The notes beneath the pieces were generated by a model, which did not search any database, had not been told where the DNA came from, and saw only the letters and a list, made by a program, of their open reading frames with translations. Position numbers and translations under genes: made by a program. A stretch of DNA of 64,000 nucleotides from the NCBI GenBank assembly GCA_044892525.1, contig CM097885.1, positions 27,158,001 to 27,222,000 of the forward strand, in the 5' to 3' direction. Shown piece by piece: positions 1 to 64,000 of this stretch (positions are counted from its first letter, which is position 1; the number at the start of each line of letters is the position of its first letter). The stretch is from Schmidtea polychroa (lineage: Eukaryota).

Positions 1-3000
1 AATTATATAATTCATTTTCTTCATTACTAAGTAAAATAATTAAAATATTGTAGTAAATTCTTTATTTACTTACTTTATGGATACTAAAACGAAAGAAATA
101 AAGTTATTTCAAAAGTATATTTAAATATTTTAAATTTAAATAATTTAAATTTAGTTATTTAAACATATTTAAACACTTTAGTTATTTAAGCATATTTAAA
201 CATTAATATTATTATATAGTATAATTTTATATAATTTTATATAATATTATAATATTATAATATTATGTATTGTAAATTTAATATATCCTTAATTTAATTT
301 TTTAAATTCAAAAATTTATAATGAAGATTCTTTGAATTAAAAAATATTCTGTTAGTATTTCCAGGCAGAAAACAACGAATTCAATAATTAAAATCTTAAT
401 TTTCATGTTGTTAGGGTTGTGGCCAGAAGTTAATCGCCATCTAATCGTTTGTTCTCAATTTCGCTCATTTTTGTTCAAAACATTCAGGTGAGTTGTTATC
501 TGGAAAGTTTCTTTGAGCTCAGTTTTGTTAAAACACTCACGGTATTCTTGAGGGACGTGACACTGGGAATAAATTAACAATGGGTGGTCTTGCATACATG
601 TTGTTGTTTTGAACTGTTGATTTATTTTAGAAATATGTATATTAAAAACATTTAGGGTATCATTCAGTAAAATAATATAGTATTTTTGAGTATGTTTTAG
701 TTGATTTATAAATAACAGTATTTTGATATATCAATAAAGACCATATACTCCTAGTTTATCCGACAAAATATTCTGTCCCCCTATGGATATTGCTAGCAAG
801 GGTACTGGTCACATTCAACATGTCGCAAGGCTATATTAATCATTTAGAAATTCTTAGGTAATTTAGTAAGATGATCAGAAATTCGTGAATATTTTAAATG
901 TAACTTTACACTTATGTCGAGCGACTAATTTATTGGTTAACTTTGTAGTCATTTAAAGCAAAAATTAATTTATTCATCTAATGTTCGTTACAATAGTTAA
1001 TAATATGAGAAAAACATGGTCATTATTCATTGATAATTTTTAATTCTTTATCATTTGGAGTAAATTTGTTTGAGGCAAAAATAATTAAAGGAGTCATAAT
1101 AGAAATATGGTTATCATTTATCCAATTAAGGGGCCTATTATTTAGAAATATATATTATAAAGTAACAATTATTTTCTAATTTAATTAGATGATCATTAGA
1201 CGTAATATATCTTTGCGAGAAATTTAAGATGTTTGAGTAACCAAAACATGGACATTTTGTGCGATAAATTTATGAATATTGCTTAATTTTGTTATTTTTA
1301 GTCATTTAAAATAATATTTAGCAAAGGTAATTTAGCAAAATATCATTTATCCATCCGATAACAATATTCCTTCAATAGATTAACTGATATTCAACCTATT
1401 TAATTTCTGGAAATATAATTAAAATCATAAATTTCCTTCATGAAAGTTAAATTTTCTTTAGTTGTCGATGTCTTACTCTTTTAAGTCAATATTTTTGTTA
1501 CCGTTATCTTCATAATGAATGTCCGTCTTTAAAATGTTAAATAAAATAATTTAAAGCAATAACCTTTGATATCAATTATCTCTAAATATTTCAAATATTG
1601 CATTGTCAAAACCAAGTAAATTAGTCATTACCCATTAATAAAACCGTGGATAATTAATAAAAACTGGTTCTGAAACATAAATTACTGTGCAATAACATTC
1701 ATCACAACCTCTAAAACGATATAATTTCACAGGAACTATTCATAGCTGACTATTTCCCTTGAAAATTTGATATTTTACCAATAAGAATATATAAATATTC
1801 AAAACATTAACCGATCCCTCACCAAATATCTTTACCCCTTAAAACACCTTAAATCGTATATATTACCATCTTAACCTTCACTAAATCCAACCGAATATAA
1901 TTTCATCCACTTGTGCCCTTTAATAAATCTTAAAATCTATAGAAAATTCTTCAAAATATGAATTTTATTTAATTGTCACAGACATTCTTCCATTGAAATA
2001 ATTTAGTAGCTAAATTCAAAGAGTCCACTAAAAGATCAAAATTCATTAAAATAAATATTTAACCACATGTGTCATCAAATACCTAACTAGAGATGATAAT
2101 ATCTCATTGATTGATCATAATTATAACCATTATAACATGATATATCTTTCAAACTAAATTTAGGTATATTTTACAATAATTTTCAAGTAGATTTTAAATA
2201 TATCATCATCGTGAAAAAATTAGATTGTTTCAACTTTAGATTTTCAATATTTTAAAGTTCATCAATGTGTAAATATTCTTAGAAAAATATATGAAAAAAT
2301 TATTTAGTCAAATTATCATTACAAAGTCATCATCATCATCAAAATTAATAAAATATAGCAAATTATCAAGAAATTAATTAAATTTATCTTAGAATTAACA
2401 CTAAACCTTAAATATTCTTTCAATTAACATGAAATTCACAAAAAAATGTTAGTAAAATCCCGCTAACTCTAAAAAATTACCAATGAATTTAATGCCAAAT
2501 AATAACCAAATATTTGCCTAAATAAAACACACCAGTACCTTTACGACCAGTACCCTTACAACCAGTACCCTTACGAGCAGTACCCATAGAGGGAGAAAAT
2601 ATTTTGTCGGATAAACTCCGAGTATATATATAATAAAACGAATTAACAATAACTCCATCAAATTGAATCAGTCAAATTATCACAAATTTTAATAAAAATC
2701 TTATTCTAAAGTGGTAAGCAGCGTAAAATCGAAAGATAATTTTAATAACACAGAGATAAAATTAACTATATTATTCTCAGGTGGTAAGAATATTTTATTT
2801 TTGAGTCTGTTATCCCTCTATTATCATTGCTTACTTGATGTTTTCATAAATTTGAGTAAAGTTAATGCTGGGTATGTGTTCTGACACACTTTGTTATTTT
2901 CTTAACTTTGAGAGATTATTTGATTAAAAAGAGTAATGTATCTTAAATTATCTTTTAGAATAACTGTTTTTGAAATATTTAATGTAAAATAGTAAATCTC

Positions 3001-6000
3001 ATAATTATTAATTCAATATTAAAGGAGTTAATCAAAATTTAAAATATAAAGTTATCATAATTGCTTAGTCAAATACCATTTGTTATGTATGTTTGTCATT
3101 TTTGGATTAAATACTTTATCAAAATAATTGTTTATCACATTATTATTATTCGTTAGTCACTCATATATTAGAAATAATTTATAAATACTCATCACTTATA
3201 GCCCCCCACTTTCCACTAATCCTCCCAACAACTATTTCTTTGAACATTGAATTAAATATTTTTTTTTTTTATTAAAGTGATCATTTTTATAAATTTTTAT
3301 GAATTTCATGAAATAATTTTAAATAAATGCAATTAATATATTTCCATCTTATCTATGACACTTCTCGGTATATTTACATTTACGTTCCATTAATGAATAA
3401 TTCAAACCCTTATTTTCACCTTTTTGAATTTCATTATTAATTAATCATAGAATAATGATGATTCTTACCACCTGAGAATAATATTGTTAATTTTATCTCT
3501 GTGTTATTAAAATTATCTTTCGATTTTACGCTGCTTACCACTTTAGAATAAGATTTTTTATTAAAATTTGTGATAATTTGAATGATTCAATTTGATGGAG
3601 TTATTGTTAATTCGTTTTATTATATATATACTCGGAGTTTATCCGACAAAATATTTTCTCCCTCTATGGGTACTGCTCGTAAGGGTACTGGTTGTAAGGG
3701 TACTGGTCGTAAAGGTACTGGTGTGTTTTAATGATTTTATTTAGGCAAATATTTGGTTATTATTTGGCATTAAATTCATTGGTAATTTTTTAGAGTTAGC
3801 GGGATTTTACTAACATTTTTTTTGTGAATTTCATGTTAATTGAAAGAATATTTAAGGTTTAGTGTTAATTCTAAGATAAATTTAATTAATTTCTTGATAA
3901 TTTGCTATATTTTATTAATTTTGATGATGATGATGACTTTGTAATGATAATTTGACTAAATAATTTTTTCATATATTTTTCTAAGAATATTTACACATTG
4001 ATGAACTTTAAAATATTGAAAATCTAAAGTTGAAACAATCTAATTTTTTCACGATGATGATATATTTAAAATCTACTTGAAAATTATTGTAAAATATACC
4101 TAAATTTAGTTTGAAAGATATATCATGTTATAATGGTTATAATTATGATCAATCAATGAGATATTATCATCTCTAGTTAGGTATTTGATGACACATGTGG
4201 TTAAATATTTATTTTAATGAATTTTGATCTTTTAGTGGACTCTTTGAATTTAGCTACTAAATTATTTCAATGGGAGAATGTCTGTGACAATTAAATAAAA
4301 TTCATATTTTGAAGAATTTTCTATAGATTTTAAGATTTATTAAAGGGCACAAGTGGATGAAATTATATTCGGTTGGATTTAGTGAAGGTTAAGATGGTAA
4401 TATATACGATTTAAGGTGTTTTAAGGGGTAAAGATATTTGGTGAGGGATCGGTTAATGTTTTGAATATTTATATATTCTTATTGGTAAAATATCAAATTT
4501 TCAAGGGAAATAGTCAGCTATGAATAGTTCCTGTGAAATTATATCGTTTTAGAGGTTGTGATGAATGTTATTGCACAGTAATTTATGTTTCAGAACCAGT
4601 TTTTATTAATTATCCACGGTTTTATTAATGGGTAATGACTAATTTACTTGGTTTTGACAATGCAATATTTGAAATATTTAGAGATAATTGATATCAAAGG
4701 TTATTGCTTTAAATTATTTTATTTAACATTTTAAAGACGGACATTCATTATGAAGATAACGGTAACAAAAATATTGACTTAAAAGAGTTAGACATCGACA
4801 ACTAAAGAAAATTTAACTTTCATGAAGGAAATTTATGATTTTAATTATATTTCCTGAAATTAAATAGGTTGAATATCAGTTAATCTATTGAAGGAATATT
4901 GTTATCGGATGGATAAATGATATTTTGCTAAATTACCTTTGCTAAATATTATTTTAAATGACTAAAAATAACAAAATTAAGCAATATTCATAAATTTATC
5001 GCACAAAATGTCCATGTTTTGGTTACTCAAACATCTTAAATTTCTCGCAAAGATATATTACGTCTAATGATCATCTAATTAAATTAGAAAATAATTGTTA
5101 CTTTATAATATATATTTCTAAATAATAGGCCCCTTAATTGGATAAATGATAACCATATTTCTATTATGACTCCTTTAATTATTTTTGCCTCAAACAAATT
5201 TACTCCAAATGATAAAGAATTTAAAATTATCAATGAATAATGACCATGTTTTTCTCATATTATTAACTATTGTAACGAACATTAGATGAATAAATTAATT
5301 TTTGCTTTAAATGACTACAAAGTTAACCAATAAATTAGTCGCTCGACATAAGTGTAAAGTTACATTTAAAATATTCACGAATTTCTGATCATCTCACTAA
5401 ATTACCTAAGAATTTCTAAATGATTAATATAGCCTTGCGACATGTTGAATGTGACCAGTACCCTTGCTAGCAATATCCATAGGGGGACAGAATATTTTGT
5501 CGGATAAACTAGGAGTATATGGTCTTTATTGATATATCAAAATACTGTTATTTATAAATCAACTAAAACATACTCAAAAATACTATATTATTTTACTGAA
5601 TGATACCTTAAATGTTTTTAATATACATATTTCTAAAATAAATCAACAGTTCAAACCAACAACATGTATGCAAGACCACCCATTGTTAATTTATTCCCAG
5701 TGTCACGTCCCTCAAGAATACCGTGAGTGTTTTAACAAAACTGAGCTCAAAGAAACTTTCCAGATAACAACTCACCTGAATGTTTTGAACAAAAATGAGC
5801 GAAATTGAGAACAAACGATTAGATGGCGATTAACTTCTGGCCACAACCCTAACAACATGAAAATTAAGATTTTAATTATTGAATTCGTTGTTTTCTGCCT
5901 GGAAATACTAACAGAATATTTTTTAATTCAAAGAATCTTCATTATAAATTTTTGAATTTAAAAAATTAAGTTAAGGATATATTAAATTTACAATACATAA

Positions 6001-6262
6001 TATTATAATATTATAATATTATATAAAATTATATAAAATTATACTATATAATAATATTAATGTTTAAATATGCTTAAATAACTAAAGTGTTTAAATATGT
6101 TTAAATAACTAAATTTAAATTATTTAAATTTAAAATATTTAAATATACTTTTGAAATAACTTTATTTCTTTCGTTTTAGTATCCATAAAGTAAGTAAATA
6201 AAGAATTTACTACAATATTTTAATTATTTTACTTAGTAATGAAGAAAATGAATTATATAATT
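1..6262. repeat. Large inverted repeat (palindrome): arms 1-2791 and 3461-6262, unique spacer 2792-3460
   Basis: Base 1 (aattatataattcattttcttc) is the reverse complement of 6241-6262. The inner ends gtggtaagaat (2781-2791) and attcttaccac (3461-3471) also pair. The arms differ by scattered substitutions and one ~10-bp indel near 3730. Confidence 0.95.
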
Positions 6263-6846: not shown

Positions 6847-7320
6847 TTAAATATAATAGGGTTGGGTGGGTCCTCTTTATCCCTTAATTAATATATATTT
6901 ACAAGCTGATCGTCGTGGTGGGCGGTTGTAATCCAACTAGTGGGAGGCCTCTGTAAATATATATTTGTGTTAGTGAAAACATTAATTAATTTGGTTATAG
7001 TGCCAATGACGCATGTATTTTGAAATTATACGTTTCGAATGTGCTGGTAGTTGACTACCCATGCTAGGCGTAATGTTCCATACGGAAAACTATAATGCCC
7101 AGGTTCTTCTGACCCCACTTGGGGGAGGCACAGACGACCCTTGTGGACGCGAACAAATATCCACCGTGTCTTTCAGGCACAGATATTTGGTCACTGCTCA
7201 TTAGACCTGGCAATACTAAATGCATAAACTTTGCCTTGTCCTCTCTTGTCTTGATTTTTATAGTTTAAATATTATTAAAAATAGTAGGTGTTATAAGTTT
7301 TATTTACTAACCTTAATTAA

Positions 7321-10290: not shown

Positions 10291-10377
10291 CCCGGGGGGG
10301 GAGGGGGGAGGGGGTATATGTGATGCGGGGAGCTCCTGATCTGGGGAGCTCCAATCATACTACTTATTTTGCCATAG

Positions 10378-10448
10378 TATTTATTAAAAACTAGACTATG
10401 AATCAGTAAATATATCGATGTTTTTTAGAAATTCACGAATTTTCGGCC
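10378..10448 (-). repeat. Penelope-derived hammerhead repeat, truncated copy
   Basis: The reverse complement reads GGCCGAAAATTCGTGAA...CATCGATATATTTACTGATTCATAGTC, matching 14634-14780. Confidence 0.75.
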
Positions 10449-11993: not shown

Positions 11994-12800
11994 TTATTGA
12001 AACCAATTGTCATTGAGAAGCTCTTTTAATTCGATTCTATGTTTTGGATTAACAACAATACATTTCTTAATAAATTCTTTTACATTTTTCGAACATTTAG
12101 TAAATGACAATTTCCGTATGTAATCGTCATTTTCCTTTCTGAAAGGCTTCTTCTGTTCAATGCAACAGTAAGTTAGGGCTCCCAGCATGAATACAATGCT
12201 TTTCTTCACGTCATATCTAATACCCTCAAATACTTCTGGACAATAATATCCAGCAGTTCCGGCATGATCATCACATTTAGGATTTTTATCTTCAACATCG
12301 TAAAGCGCGTCTTTGTAATCAAGAATCTTTACTTGATATGTTGATTTATTAACCATGATATTTTTTGGCTTGATATCCAAATGATAAATGCCTTTCTCTG
12401 TCAACTTTTGAATGGCTATTATTACATTTCGTACTATTTTCTTTATTGAACTTTCAGGTCGTTTCTTCGCCATAATGTATTCATGCAATTCAATCCATTT
12501 GCCTGTCAAATGTTCCATAACAATTGCAAATTCTTTATCATTTTGGAAATAACGAAGAATTTTTGGACAAATTTCATCATCATTGATTAATTGATTAAAA
12601 TGCATTTCAAGCGGAATCGGGCATGAATAATCTGGACTTTTTGTGAATAGGTTAACTTTATATTTGTAATAACTTTTTATGACTACAGTTTTGTTTTTGT
12701 AAATTTCTCTAAGATAGTTTTCTGCGACATATATTGTACTTTTCTTTGATGAAAGGAGCGTTTTAATGTATTTGTAATTATCAGAAATAATCATATTCAA
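11994..12800 (-). CDS. Intronless Ser/Thr protein kinase, PIM-like, atypical (non-RD; DYK in place of DFG)
   Basis: 268-aa ORF with VVIK, PIPLEMH (alphaC), FAIVMEH, YHLDIKPKN, VKILDYKD, GTAGYYCPE and the C-terminal R...ELLNDNWF. Confidence 0.75.
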   Translation of the reverse strand: MNMIISDNYKYIKTLLSSKKSTIYVAENYLREIYKNKTVVIKSYYKYKVNLFTKSPDYSCPIPLEMHFNQLINDDEICPKILRYFQNDKEFAIVMEHLTGKWIELHEYIMAKKRPESSIKKIVRNVIIAIQKLTEKGIYHLDIKPKNIMVNKSTYQVKILDYKDALYDVEDKNPKCDDHAGTAGYYCPEVFEGIRYDVKKSIVFMLGALTYCCIEQKKPFRKENDDYIRKLSFTKCSKNVKEFIKKCIVVNPKHRIELKELLNDNWFQ

Positions 12801-13383
12801 TCGCTTTAATAATTGTTTTAATAATATCTTGTTGGCCTTTCAAATAATGATATATTTTATTTATTTTGTATTTATATCGCATATGATTGGATAGATTAAT
12901 AAAATAAATAAATAATTTAATATGTAATGACAATAGAAACTTTTTATATTATAATTTGATCGGGACATTGGAGTAAATTGCTCATTCTGATCTGTGCCTC
13001 ATAGGAACGGATTGTATCATTTTTGTTTATGCATAAATCCAACTATTTGCGTCTGTACACTCACCCTACAGACATGCCAAATAACTACTGTGCACACAGA
13101 AAAGACAATCGAAATCGAACAGCCTGAGAAGACTGATTATGGGGTTTTGAGAAATTATTACCGTTCTATTAAAAGATTTCAATAGAAATGTCCAAATAAA
13201 GTCATTTTCAGAAAATTATGAATGATTTTGTGTTTAAATAAATAAATATGTTGGTGGCGACAGAGAAATTAAATATTATCAATTATTGATCTGACTCAAA
13301 AGCGTGCATTCTTTAATAACAATAATGAGCTCCACTCAATATAAATTTTATTGAATAACAAATTGATTACCAATTTACAACGA

Positions 13384-13530
13384 CATTTGAAAAGGGCAGT
13401 GCTGAAAATTCGTGAATATCAAAAAAACATCGATATCTTTACTGATTCATAGTCAAGTTTTTTGTTAATAAATGAAATGTCAATTGAAAAGAAATCAGTG
13501 GTGAAAATTGAAAAAAGTTCTTATAATAAT
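13384..13530 (+). repeat. Penelope-derived hammerhead repeat copy
   Basis: CAT-TTGAAAA-G-GGC-AGT-GCT-GAAA-ATTC-GTG followed by the shared 3' tail ending TTCTTATAATAAT. Confidence 0.8.
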
Positions 13531-13860: not shown

Positions 13861-14369
13861 ATATATATATATATATATATATATACCTACGCTTCCCTTT
13901 TTTAAACAATAGGACATGTAACACAATCAGAGCTTACATTCGCAATATGGTGTTGCCCGTTCATATTCGCCCGATTTATATAACTGCTGCACCTTTGAAG
14001 TCACAGTTTCGTAAGTCTCAAAAATCTCTAACATCAGACCTATTTCATCGAGATTGTATATACCAATCCTCCACCAAATGTTTCTGCTTCTCAAAGAACA
14101 TTGTTTACCAAATTACTTGCACAAGATGTAACGCATCGTACATAGGTGAAACACATAGAACGTTCCAAACAAGGCTCAATGAACAAGTCAAGAGAAAAAC
14201 CAGCAATTATCACGAACATTGTAAAAAAGTGCACAAATCAGCACCACTCTTACACGAAACAAAATGCAAAATGTTACAAGATGCGTTCAAAACCTCATTG
14301 CAAAGATTAACCGCGGAGTCTCTTTATATCAAAAAACTTAAACCGTCCATCAACATTCAACTTAATTAA
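13848..14369 (+). CDS. GIY-YIG endonuclease domain of a 5'-truncated Penelope-like retroelement (fragment)
   Basis: KNIVYQITCTRCNASYIGETHRTFQTRLNEQ...HEH...AESLYIKKLKPSINIQ is the PLE-type GIY-YIG signature. The N-terminus of the ORF is only (TA)n read-through. Confidence 0.85.
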   Translation: MLFNHIYIYIYIYLRFPFLNNRTCNTIRAYIRNMVLPVHIRPIYITAAPLKSQFRKSQKSLTSDLFHRDCIYQSSTKCFCFSKNIVYQITCTRCNASYIGETHRTFQTRLNEQVKRKTSNYHEHCKKVHKSAPLLHETKCKMLQDAFKTSLQRLTAESLYIKKLKPSINIQLN

Positions 14370-14782
14370 TACTTAAATTAATATTTAATTTAAAATTTAA
14401 AATTAAAAAATATTGTAAATATAATAAACTTTATTTTATAAAATAAAATATTAAAATAATTTGAAATTTAATTAAATTACAGAATTTGAAATTTTAAAAA
14501 AAATAGGAAATATTATTTGGGTAATTAAAATAAAATATAAATAGAATATAATTAAACCAATAAATTTATTATAAAATATGAAATAAATTTATTATCCTCC
14601 AACAATAATTATTAAATGTAATAATGATCAAAATCACTTGAAAAAGGCAGTGCCGAAAATTCGTGAGTATCAACAAACATCGATATATTACTGATTTATA
14701 GTTTTCAAACTCTTTTTTTAATAAATTTAATGGAAAAAATAATCACTAGTGAAATTGGAAGAAATAAAAGTCCTTATAATAA
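13886..14782 (+). mobile_element. 5'-truncated Penelope-like element: GIY-YIG 3' end plus hammerhead-containing pLTR
   Basis: It starts after (TA)n, encodes GIY-YIG, and ends in the hammerhead repeat, which runs into (TAA)n. Confidence 0.7.
14634..14666 (+). ncRNA. Minimal type I hammerhead ribozyme, U3-A8 core variant (best copy)
   Basis: Stem I TCAC/GTGA; core TTGAAAA plus one extra A; stem II GGC-AGT-GCC; GAAA; palindromic AATT mini stem III; UC cleavage site at 14661-14662. Confidence 0.7.
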
Positions 14783-14786
14783 TAAT

Positions 14787-14870
<84 letters not shown>

Positions 14871-14893
14871 TAATAATAATAATAATTAATAAT

Positions 14894-14934
<41 letters not shown>

Positions 14935-15840
14935 CAATAAAATGATAATTTAAGCTCATTTTACATGTTTCAATAAATTTTTTGATTTCGAAAATGGTCC
15001 TGAATTAGGTTATTTTTTCTTGAGTATAAAAATTCGCCCTCTTCCAAATTGATCATTTTATTTTATTTGCATTTTAATTGAGGTTAGGGAAAACTATAGA
15101 ATTGAAATTATAAAAGTTTTGAGAGTAACGTATTTAGGATTAGGATTTTAACCATTAACTGCATGATTTTCCCAAATTCTAACGAATTTTTTTTAAAATG
15201 TCAATATCACGCGTACAAAGACATTTATTAGAATAATTTGAAAATACAATGGCTCGGCGTTTTGTTACACTTATGCAACACTGTGCATTAGAGTTCTTTT
15301 ATTGCATGTATACTGAGTTATAAACGCTTAAATAAATTGTTACAGATATGCAACAGAATGCATTTAACGGTAAAAACAAACGCAAATTATTTTGCTTCTA
15401 AATGAAAATAGTTCCATAATTTTATCTGACTCAAGGTATGTTAAAATAAAGCTAAATGTAATTTCTTGTTAGCATAATATTAAATGTTAAAATTTTTGAT
15501 AATTCAAAGTCGTTCATTGAATGTAAAAATTTCGACTTTTAGTAAATCTTTGTTGCAATTTATTTAAATTTATTTTCTGTCATTATTCAAATGACATAGA
15601 ATAGAAAATTTTAGGAATATACTTTTATTATTTATTCTTATAAATATCAATTCATGAATGTTTTTTAAGTTTGTTAATATTTAATAAAAATCTTTCATTA
15701 GATTCCATGACTTGTTTTACTAGAGTCGGTTTTCCTCACTTTTCTAGATTTCTATTCAAATATCAATAAATTTTGATTGTAAGATATTTTTAATATATAC
15801 GTTACATAATAACTTTTCTACAGTCCTACCTTGAGTTAAA

Positions 15841-28630: not shown

Positions 28631-30204
28631 GATACAGAGTGAATCTGCATGTGGAGAATGGTCAATGATGATGATATCTATGCGATGAAAAGAATAAACA
28701 TTATTGTGATAACTTATTATTAACAATTTGATTTATATTGATTTATTCGTGATGACATTATAGAAATTTATAAAAAAAGGAAATGACATCTTTTCAAGAA
28801 TCATTTGAAGCGGCTAAAACTTTAAAATCAATGACAAATAAAAATACATTAAAAATGCTGGACAAATGGATAATTCCAAAAATAGTAACAATTAAAATTT
28901 GCACTTTTAAAAACAGAAAATTCTATTGACTTTAACAGAACAGAATATATTGACATTCAAAATGGAGTGTTAACAGGGATTTCATATATAAGTCGACTGA
29001 TTTCTCAGTCAAATCACCCAAAAAATAAGAGCTTTTAAGAAGAGTTGTAAATTCAGAAATTGATATTCCAATATAATTTAGAGCTATACCTATTTTACAC
29101 ATCCGAGGTCAGGAAGCTATAAGCATTTACATACACATACACACGCATATTTATATATATTTATATATAATACAAATTGAAATATATTTGAGGTGATTGT
29201 TAATTTCATATTTTTAACTTTATTAGTAATTGTGATAATGTAATAAATTTATTGAACCAGTGTTTGTGTTCTTATTTATATAGGAACCATCAAGTTGAGA
29301 TTTCAGAACCTCAACATCATCAATCAAACAATATCCATTTCAAAACCAATAAATATTCTCAAATATCAACTGCTTCCAAACAATAAATCTTGACAATTAT
29401 CTAGATGTTTGTTATTAGTTTTATATACATGTTAAGATCTGTTTGTTAATGTTATTTAATGAAAACGTCTAGAAACTTTATTAGTTCGGTTACTTTTCAT
29501 AACAAAAAAATCAACAGCGCTAAAACTAATTAATATTTATTAAACTCAAAACATAAGCAAGCAATACAATGTTGTCTACATGTAACTATTAAAGGTTTTT
29601 GATATCTAATTCTGTTGTATACAGTAGGTTTTGTAAGAAATCTAGAGAGTAAGAGATCTAAGCTTTTGTCAAATCAAATTTATAAAATGAAAAAACCTCA
29701 TCCATACTTAATCAAAAAAGTGGTCTACCGTTAGATTACCTACCTTATTGAAAAATGCAGATTAGATAAGAGTGTAGCTGACAATATAGTATTAAATTTT
29801 GCTGACGCTTAATAAAGTTTTCTGTTTGGATCTTATTTTAATAATTGAAACAAAGAGCACAAGGAGTGAGAGTCAATACCGAATTTAACCATAATAACCC
29901 AACATTTACATTTTTAGAAATAATGTTTATATTTTTCTTAAGAATTTTAAAAATTATATAAAAATTATCAAATGACTATAAAGCTTTTTTCAAATTTAAC
30001 AAATTTAAATTTAGTTTAAAATTTAAAATTTTATATTTCATTTATTTTCATTTTATAAACACAAATCCAGAAATTAGTGCGTCGTATAATTAAATCTTGG
30101 ATCTATTGTCTGAATGAAAATAAATTAAATATCAAAAATGGAAAACAGATCAAATGTGAACGAAAATAATAAATTATTTAAGTGATTAAAAAGAGAGCTT
30201 GAAG

Positions 30205-30350
30205 ACTATAAATCAGTAATATATCGATGTTTTTTGATACTCGCGAATTTTCGGCACTGCCTTTTTCAAGTGAAATTCACTTGAAAAAAAAGAAAAATTC
30301 AATGGAAAAAATAATCAGTGGTGAAATTGGAAAAATAAGTTCTTATAATA
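30205..30350 (-). repeat. Hammerhead repeat in head-to-head arrangement (intact ribozyme on minus strand, ~30241-30273)
   Basis: The reverse complement TCAC-TTGAAAA-A-GGCAGTGCC-GAAA-ATTC-GCGA is joined by the palindrome TTTTCAAGTGAAATTCACTTGAAAA to a plus-strand 3' tail. Confidence 0.75.

Positions 30351-30821: not shown

Positions 30822-64000
<33,179 letters not shown>

Follow-up and report, generated by a model that had tools for sequence, protein, structure and literature searches.

Background

Cervera and de la Pena (2014, PMC4209133) described a minimal class of hammerhead ribozyme that resides in pseudo-LTRs of Penelope-like elements. Among the sequences presented there is a U3-A8 variant with about 1,300 matches in Schistosoma mansoni (Cercyon elements), and the swap of the C3-G8 pair to U3-A8, invoked by the original prediction made for the locus studied here, is thus published. 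The same paper describes an unpaired base between positions 9 and 10.1 and a palindromic segment 15.2-16.2, copies that are mostly solo with some opposite-strand pairs, and an activity that is low even in dimers.

The elements themselves leave characteristic insertions. The hallmarks listed for Penelope include 5′ truncation in many cases, a truncated copy lying next to the element in inverted orientation, and a tail of 30-40 bp at one end (PMC8557442). According to the work on a reconstituted element (PMC11167929), this tail is the interval between two internal sites, within the 5′ part of the ORF, at which reverse transcription begins, and nicking takes place at ATT.

Here we present the analysis of a 64-kb stretch of DNA (the window) in which a short repeat carrying a hammerhead-like motif is dispersed. 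With good confidence, the repeats represent 3′ ends (the pseudo-LTR with the tail) of two or more Penelope-like families, left by heavily 5′-truncated insertions, and the motif is a predicted U3-A8 minimal hammerhead. This variant has precedents: PMC4209133 already contains the U3-A8 core, an extra base following A9 and a palindromic stem III.

Results

A probable truncated Penelope-like insertion carries the motif

Judged from its sequence, the segment 13887-14780 reads as an ordinary 5′-truncated Penelope-like insertion with a 3′ pseudo-LTR. The insertion and its borders consist of the following features:

13861..13885, (TA)n, putative 5′ junction of the truncated insertion
13887..14369, plus strand, 3′ fragment of a Penelope-like ORF: end of the RT thumb, linker, GIY-YIG endonuclease (Pfam GIY-YIG, E 6e-5) and stop codon
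14370..14633, plus strand, spacer, 91% AT, putative 5′ part of the pseudo-LTR
14634..14666, plus strand, minimal type I hammerhead-like motif with a U3-A8 core, matched by the descriptor with UUGANAA; the local MFE fold gives stems I and II
14667..14780, plus strand, remainder of the repeat; the optional tail is its last ~50 nt, with an ATG at 14730
14776..14949, (AAT)n, 3′ junction; the repeat ends at 14780 inside it

The endonuclease fragment has 823 relatives at E up to 0.001, the best long one being P0007 (E 5e-27), and the long relatives that were scanned contain RVT_1 in 6 of 6 cases and GIY-YIG in 4 of these. At 13887-14369 a GIY-YIG domain with internal cysteines forms the ORF's C-terminal end and the ribozyme motif lies downstream; in the linker, Y occupies the position of the second cysteine. 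One copy had been said to sit directly after a GIY-YIG ORF: the ORF fragment is real, and the motif begins 264 nt past its stop codon. The spacer between them is not common to the other copies in the window, and its tie to the endonuclease fragment therefore rests on position. A closely upstream ORF fragment was found for this 1 copy only. No RT domain or full-length element was detected in the 64-kb window, as would be expected if the copy is 5′-truncated.

A second GIY-YIG relic lies at 38224-38463 (plus strand) in an intron of the dynein gene described below. It is decayed, has a stop, belongs to a different Penelope-like family and has no intact ribozyme behind it. Among the relatives of the first fragment, P0007, P0018, P0055, P0040 and P0273 combine Hydra-clade marks (DKT, CxCX5C) with internal cysteines and possibly represent an unplaced Penelope subgroup.

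Copies in the window

The window contains 18 repeat arms per 64 kb. Profile searches, with profiles built from the window's own copies, distinguish a family A of ~150 nt (12 arms, 83-94% alike) and a family B that is 61-80% alike to family A. The original prediction of about a dozen copies is borne out, the dispersed repeat being present at or near 12 of the 12 listed places; in 4 of these the core is partial or absent, two copies starting inside it and two being without it. In addition to the copy at 14634, we find:

10369..10447, minus strand, family A copy that starts within stem II, tail absent
13380..13527, plus strand, family A copy, intact core, 3-bp stem I, tail present
30176..30349, head-to-head pair; minus arm (30275-30176) with intact core, a stem I mismatch and no tail; plus arm with an internal deletion, tail present
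34600..34799, family B head-to-head pair; arm at 34701 (plus) with intact core, stem I and palindrome broken; arm at 34683 (minus) decayed
37657..37798, plus strand, family A copy with A14C (core 37662), tail present
39175..39427, family B head-to-head pair; arm at 39316 (plus) with intact core, 6-bp stem I and non-palindromic stem III; arm at 39290 (minus) decayed and absent from the original list
41794..41926, minus strand, family A copy without U3-U4-G5, tail present
45796..45951, fold-back copy without ribozyme; direct arm with tail, inverted arm without
52868..53009, second fold-back copy without ribozyme, same junction
60090..60191, plus strand, family A copy with G12A, extra base absent, internal deletion, tail present (core 60095)
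61186..61271, plus strand, family B copy, decayed (core 61191)

Many copies begin within ~15 nt of stem I and have the same 3′ end. Most copies are broken, and the motif is plausibly a mostly decayed ribozyme relic.

In families A and B alike, a motif ending in TGATYYATAG (14690-14701) is kept ~35 nt past the predicted cut, and GT occurs at 14521 and 14618. The last ten letters of an intron in the host HSP70 gene seem to be identical to those that close the motif in the 14634 copy; dynein acceptors are for the most part richer in T than this motif. If it were a splice acceptor, the ribozyme would fall within a 5′ intron of the element.

End points, tail and inverted pairs point to probable Penelope-like ends

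Family A arms end at two places: 8 of 12 end at one point and the other 4 end 41-54 model positions earlier, and each of the 3 inverted pairs of this family joins one long with one short arm. Over all arms, 5 of the 8 on the minus strand have a plus arm starting within 100 nt in head-to-head arrangement (random mean 0.14, maximum 3 in 20,000). The stretch that separates the two end points, the tail, opens with ATG. Across six copies, 7 of its 15 changes are synonymous versus 19% expected (p = 0.016, a value that takes no account of transition bias) and 9 of the 15 fall at third positions. Two tails, at 14730 and in the plus arm of the 30.3-kb pair (the 14634 subtype), read in another frame and were omitted from this codon test. 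By these measures the tail looks like the beginning of an ORF; its peptides show no resemblance to the N-terminal 60 residues of 115 long relatives (best E 0.11).

Inverted pairs and an optional tail are hallmarks of Penelope and speak for Penelope-like ends rather than for a non-autonomous element of its own. The latter would be a SINE- or retrozyme-like unit of ~150 nt that arose from a Penelope pseudo-LTR and is mobilized in trans. The high density of arms would suit it, as would the many copies that start just before stem I and share a 3′ end, and the two fold-backs with one junction, as from a single master; a 2026 preprint (bioRxiv 10.64898/2026.07.22.740005) also derives animal retrozymes from pseudo-LTRs, often as monomers. 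However, the window holds no head-to-tail array, its nearest same-strand cores being 1,251 nt apart with the endonuclease fragment between them, while retrozymes as defined in PMC7229834 are canonical hammerheads in tandem repeats of 150-450 bp. Furthermore, the type copy comes after the end of an endonuclease ORF, the tail has a coding-like bias, and the upstream half of the ribozyme is kept, which a circular RNA running from cut to cut would not be expected to place at the 5′ end of an insertion one unit long. We therefore consider a separate element rather unlikely. As many copies have their start right before stem I, these could instead represent complete copies of a short stretch reaching from the RNA 5′ end to an internal start site, which would yield many same-sized solo copies with no separate element involved. 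Of the original prediction, the Penelope origin of the repeat is supported by the upstream endonuclease fragment, the inverted pairs and the optional tail; the distinct self-cleaving non-autonomous retroelement is not, the type copy being the 3′ end of what looks like a Penelope-like insertion and the window showing inverted pairs, an optional tail and no tandem array.

A predicted U3-A8 minimal hammerhead

Ribozyme positions are given in the general hammerhead numbering, with the H17 rule for the nucleotide preceding the cut. Both agree with the published descriptor (PMC4209133, Fig. S7), in which stems I and II span 3-7 bp, the loop 3-10 and an extra base is optional. The core rule applied for minimal hammerheads was YUGANRA with a complementary 3-8 pair, GAAA, U16.1 and H17.

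At 14634-14666 every element lies where it had been predicted. Stem I pairs 14634-37 with 14663-66, the core occupies 14638-44 and is followed by the extra base at 14645, stem II consists of 3 bp and a 3-nt loop (14646-54), and GAAA at 14655-58 runs into the self-complementary AATT at 14658-61 (segment 15.1-16.1). C17 is nucleotide 14662, with the predicted cut after it.

With UUGANAA as core, the descriptor finds 3 matches in the window (13387, 14638 and 39321), compared with a shuffle mean of 0.08 and a maximum of 1 in 100. The core pattern of the original prediction finds 5 (13387+, 14638+, 30269-, 34707+ and 39321+) and 0 in 100 shuffles. The dozen copies said to follow this pattern are thereby reduced to 5 of the 12 listed, with only 3 conforming to the published descriptor. 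As anticipated, searches for CUGANGA miss the motif, the corresponding descriptor giving 0 matches in the window; Rfam misses it too, with nothing at gathering score and no hammerhead at E up to 10. Applied to viral contigs the core pattern gave 0 matches. Metagenomes contain 27 matches to the same core, which we took as chance occurrences and used as a null: stem I is at most 3 bp in all of them and 0-1 bp in 25, and none has a Penelope protein match (best E 0.47). Stem I is 4 bp at 14638 and 6 bp at 39321.

U3-A8 is present in all eight core-bearing copies. The claim that the core is kept holds for the five in which all of it is intact; of the others, one has A14C, one G12A and one is decayed. 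At the 11 catalytic positions 4 of 88 cells differ versus 34 of 176 elsewhere (p 0.0008; two families), a contrast biased upward because the core itself was part of how the copies were detected. N7 differs in 1 of the 8 copies and two of the three stem II loop bases are nearly fixed while the first varies much, so N7 and the loop cannot be said to vary freely, as had been proposed. The tiny palindromic stem III is present in 5 of the 8 copies and missing from family B.

The reported covariation of stem I is essentially a difference between two subfamilies. In an alignment of 7 rows (60095 was omitted, the aligner having misplaced its gap) the covariation exceeds slid-partner controls and does not beat shuffles, 43 of 500 of which reach its score and 298 of 500 its double-sided pairs. 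A consensus hairpin downstream of the ribozyme was also considered and is unsupported, with compensatory change in 0 of 18 pairs.

Because of the descriptor fit, the kept catalytic positions and the metagenome null, we assign the motif to the known hammerhead class: on the sequence tests run, covariation apart, it is plausibly a U3-A8 minimal type I hammerhead.

The local MFE fold of the 14634 motif has the minimal type I topology, with pair probabilities of 0.94-0.99 when 20-nt flanks are included and near 0 with 60-nt flanks, where the stems are lost. Its energy is not better than that of shuffled sequence (z -0.94), and folding energies overall likewise do not surpass those of shuffles. An isolated AAUU duplex is predicted to be unstable (+2.2 kcal/mol), and two cofolded 33-nt motifs swap their stem II pairing with no stem III dimer, a structure that the program cannot represent.

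The loss of the fold in longer context would be expected of a hammerhead descendant that no longer cuts here and is retained through the descent of copies, or else as a signal for protein binding or a promoter. The geometry is the smallest that the descriptor allows (3-bp stem II, 3-nt loop), 5 of the 8 core-bearing copies fail the descriptor, and for the anole element the ribozyme is reported as dispensable for insertion in vitro and no RNA reads as ending at the cut (PMC11167929). Nevertheless, the catalytic bases are kept across families A and B while stem I and the flanks change, and comparably short stems occur among the examples of PMC4209133; this reading thus seems very unlikely to us. 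A repeat other than a retroelement (a MITE, a Helitron piece or a satellite) with a hammerhead look by chance can be practically dismissed, for although no target-site duplications are readable in the AT-rich flanks, no terminal inverted repeats are seen by eye, truncation is one-sided, the tail is optional, a Penelope-type endonuclease lies upstream and the descriptor fit is well above shuffles.

Fold-back copies and the predicted cut

The direct arms of the two fold-back copies (45796-45951 and 52868-53009) start 3-4 nt past the predicted cut and the copies have a common junction. They might be reverse transcripts of hammerhead-cut RNA, in which case the 33-nt U3-A8 hammerhead would cleave in vivo and set the 5′ end of a class of insertions: such a junction would arise if reverse transcription ran off cut RNA and folded back at a short ATAT repeat. 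A pause at the ATAT microhomology would also give it, as would descent from one master copy, and the anole RNA reads mentioned above argue against a footprint of the cut. In the small sample of four 5′-truncated family A copies, the two fold-backs begin past the cut and the other two before it. A limited search found nothing on point in the literature on truncation points at Penelope ribozyme cut sites. We judge this reading unlikely; if true, the footprint would tie the ribozyme to the Penelope transposition cycle.

Genomic setting

The window is AT-rich animal DNA with a kinase ORF (11994-12839, minus strand) and an HSP70 gene reaching to 17817 (plus strand). Much of the gene for axonemal dynein heavy chain 10 lies in it, on the minus strand from ~61.8 kb down to a stop near 30822; its best named match, at 71%, comes from a flatworm and those of other animals lie at 67-72%, making a flatworm host plausible. 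Repeat copies at 34.6-46 kb sit between mapped dynein exons and those at 53-61 kb between dynein-like ORFs. Within the dynein introns both intact cores run antisense to the gene (n=2, a number too small for a test of strand bias). The intact-core copy at 30275-30245 (minus strand) has the sense orientation, ~500 nt beyond the likely polyadenylation signal of this gene.

Other repeats are present as well. A perfect inverted repeat of 2,446 nt (1-2446 and 3817-6262), with nested inverted arms towards ~3130, makes window positions 1-6262 either a large palindrome or an assembly artefact. At 6905-7200 Rfam weakly matches metazoan SRP RNA in its 5′ end (E 8e-4, 29.6 bits, below gathering), and ~250 nt of higher GC follow; a divergent SRP RNA gene is one possibility, a derived repeat another. 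A further dispersed repeat, 65-100 nt long, occurs at 2572, 5465, 7358, 8521, 8847, 20065 and 20519, beside short tandem units and AAT runs.

Discussion

For the preferred reading of the repeats as Penelope-like 3′ ends, a mechanism can be proposed by analogy with published work on other elements. The element's protein would nick AT-rich DNA, and target-primed reverse transcription would start inside the element's own RNA at either of two nearby sites, so that some copies have the tail and others lack it. Synthesis would usually stop after 100-150 nt, sometimes adding an inverted second copy. In a tandem transcript two motifs could pair via AAUU and cut weakly after C17, probably helped by protein, perhaps as in the anole element, while solo genomic copies with no partner would decay.

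The window adds one more animal genome with dense probable Penelope ends bearing predicted minimal hammerheads, motifs that are missed by Rfam and by searches limited to CUGANGA. It also supplies a naturally occurring candidate close to the smallest size of a hammerhead fold. For Penelope ribozymes, reported in vitro activity is low (PMC4209133) and, in the one reconstituted element, cleavage is described as not needed for insertion (PMC11167929); with its many short copies, this family is suited to asking genome-wide if 5′ truncation points cluster at the cut.

Compared with non-LTR retrozymes (Cervera and de la Pena 2020, PMC7229834; bioRxiv 10.64898/2026.07.22.740005), the copies are alike in being a short non-coding AT-rich repeat with a type I hammerhead and pseudo-LTR kinship. 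They differ from retrozymes as characterized there in having a minimal ribozyme and not a canonical one, as well as a Penelope-type tail and inversions; the 3-bp stem II departs from a canonical hammerhead with 6 bp in helix I, 4 bp in helix II and a loop-loop contact.

In the nearest relatives of the endonuclease fragment, DKT or DKS occurs together with a CxCX5C linker; DKT and CxCX5C are marks of the Hydra clade, which like Nematis belongs to the C-terminal EN+ PLEs (Craig et al. 2021, PMC8557442), and the window fragment abuts (TA)n, as described for Hydra elements in the same work. Unlike Hydra elements, which by description lack them (PMC8557442), these relatives keep a pair of cysteines within the GIY-YIG domain; the Hydra-clade mark of an absent CCHH motif does not apply.

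Poseidon of Anolis carolinensis (Frangieh et al. 2024, PMC11167929) is alike in placing the ribozyme near the ORF start and a tail between two end points, and in its AT-rich targets with ATT/AAT at the junction. Its core, as reported, is C3-G8 and overlaps the start codon, whereas the candidate ATG here lies 68 nt past the predicted cut, and the tail, at 41-54 nt, is longer than the 30-40 bp published for Penelope (PMC8557442).

The closest counterparts are the U3-A8 ribozymes of the S. mansoni Cercyon elements (PMC4209133). Published U3-A8 examples have a stem II of 4 or 6 bp, whereas the motif analyzed here joins U3-A8 to a stem II of 3 bp and a 3-nt loop (33 nt, near the lower limit of the descriptor); among the examples given there, a stem II of 3 bp (C. 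briggsae) and 3-nt loops accompany the C3-G8 core. In a limited literature search we found no measured rate for a C3U/G8A ribozyme. The core is the same, example 4 of that paper being identical in eight core letters. The two systems also have in common the extra base after A9, G10.1, a four-base palindrome for stem III and a short stem I, together with mostly solo copies, opposite-strand pairs and a 3′ place in truncated elements.
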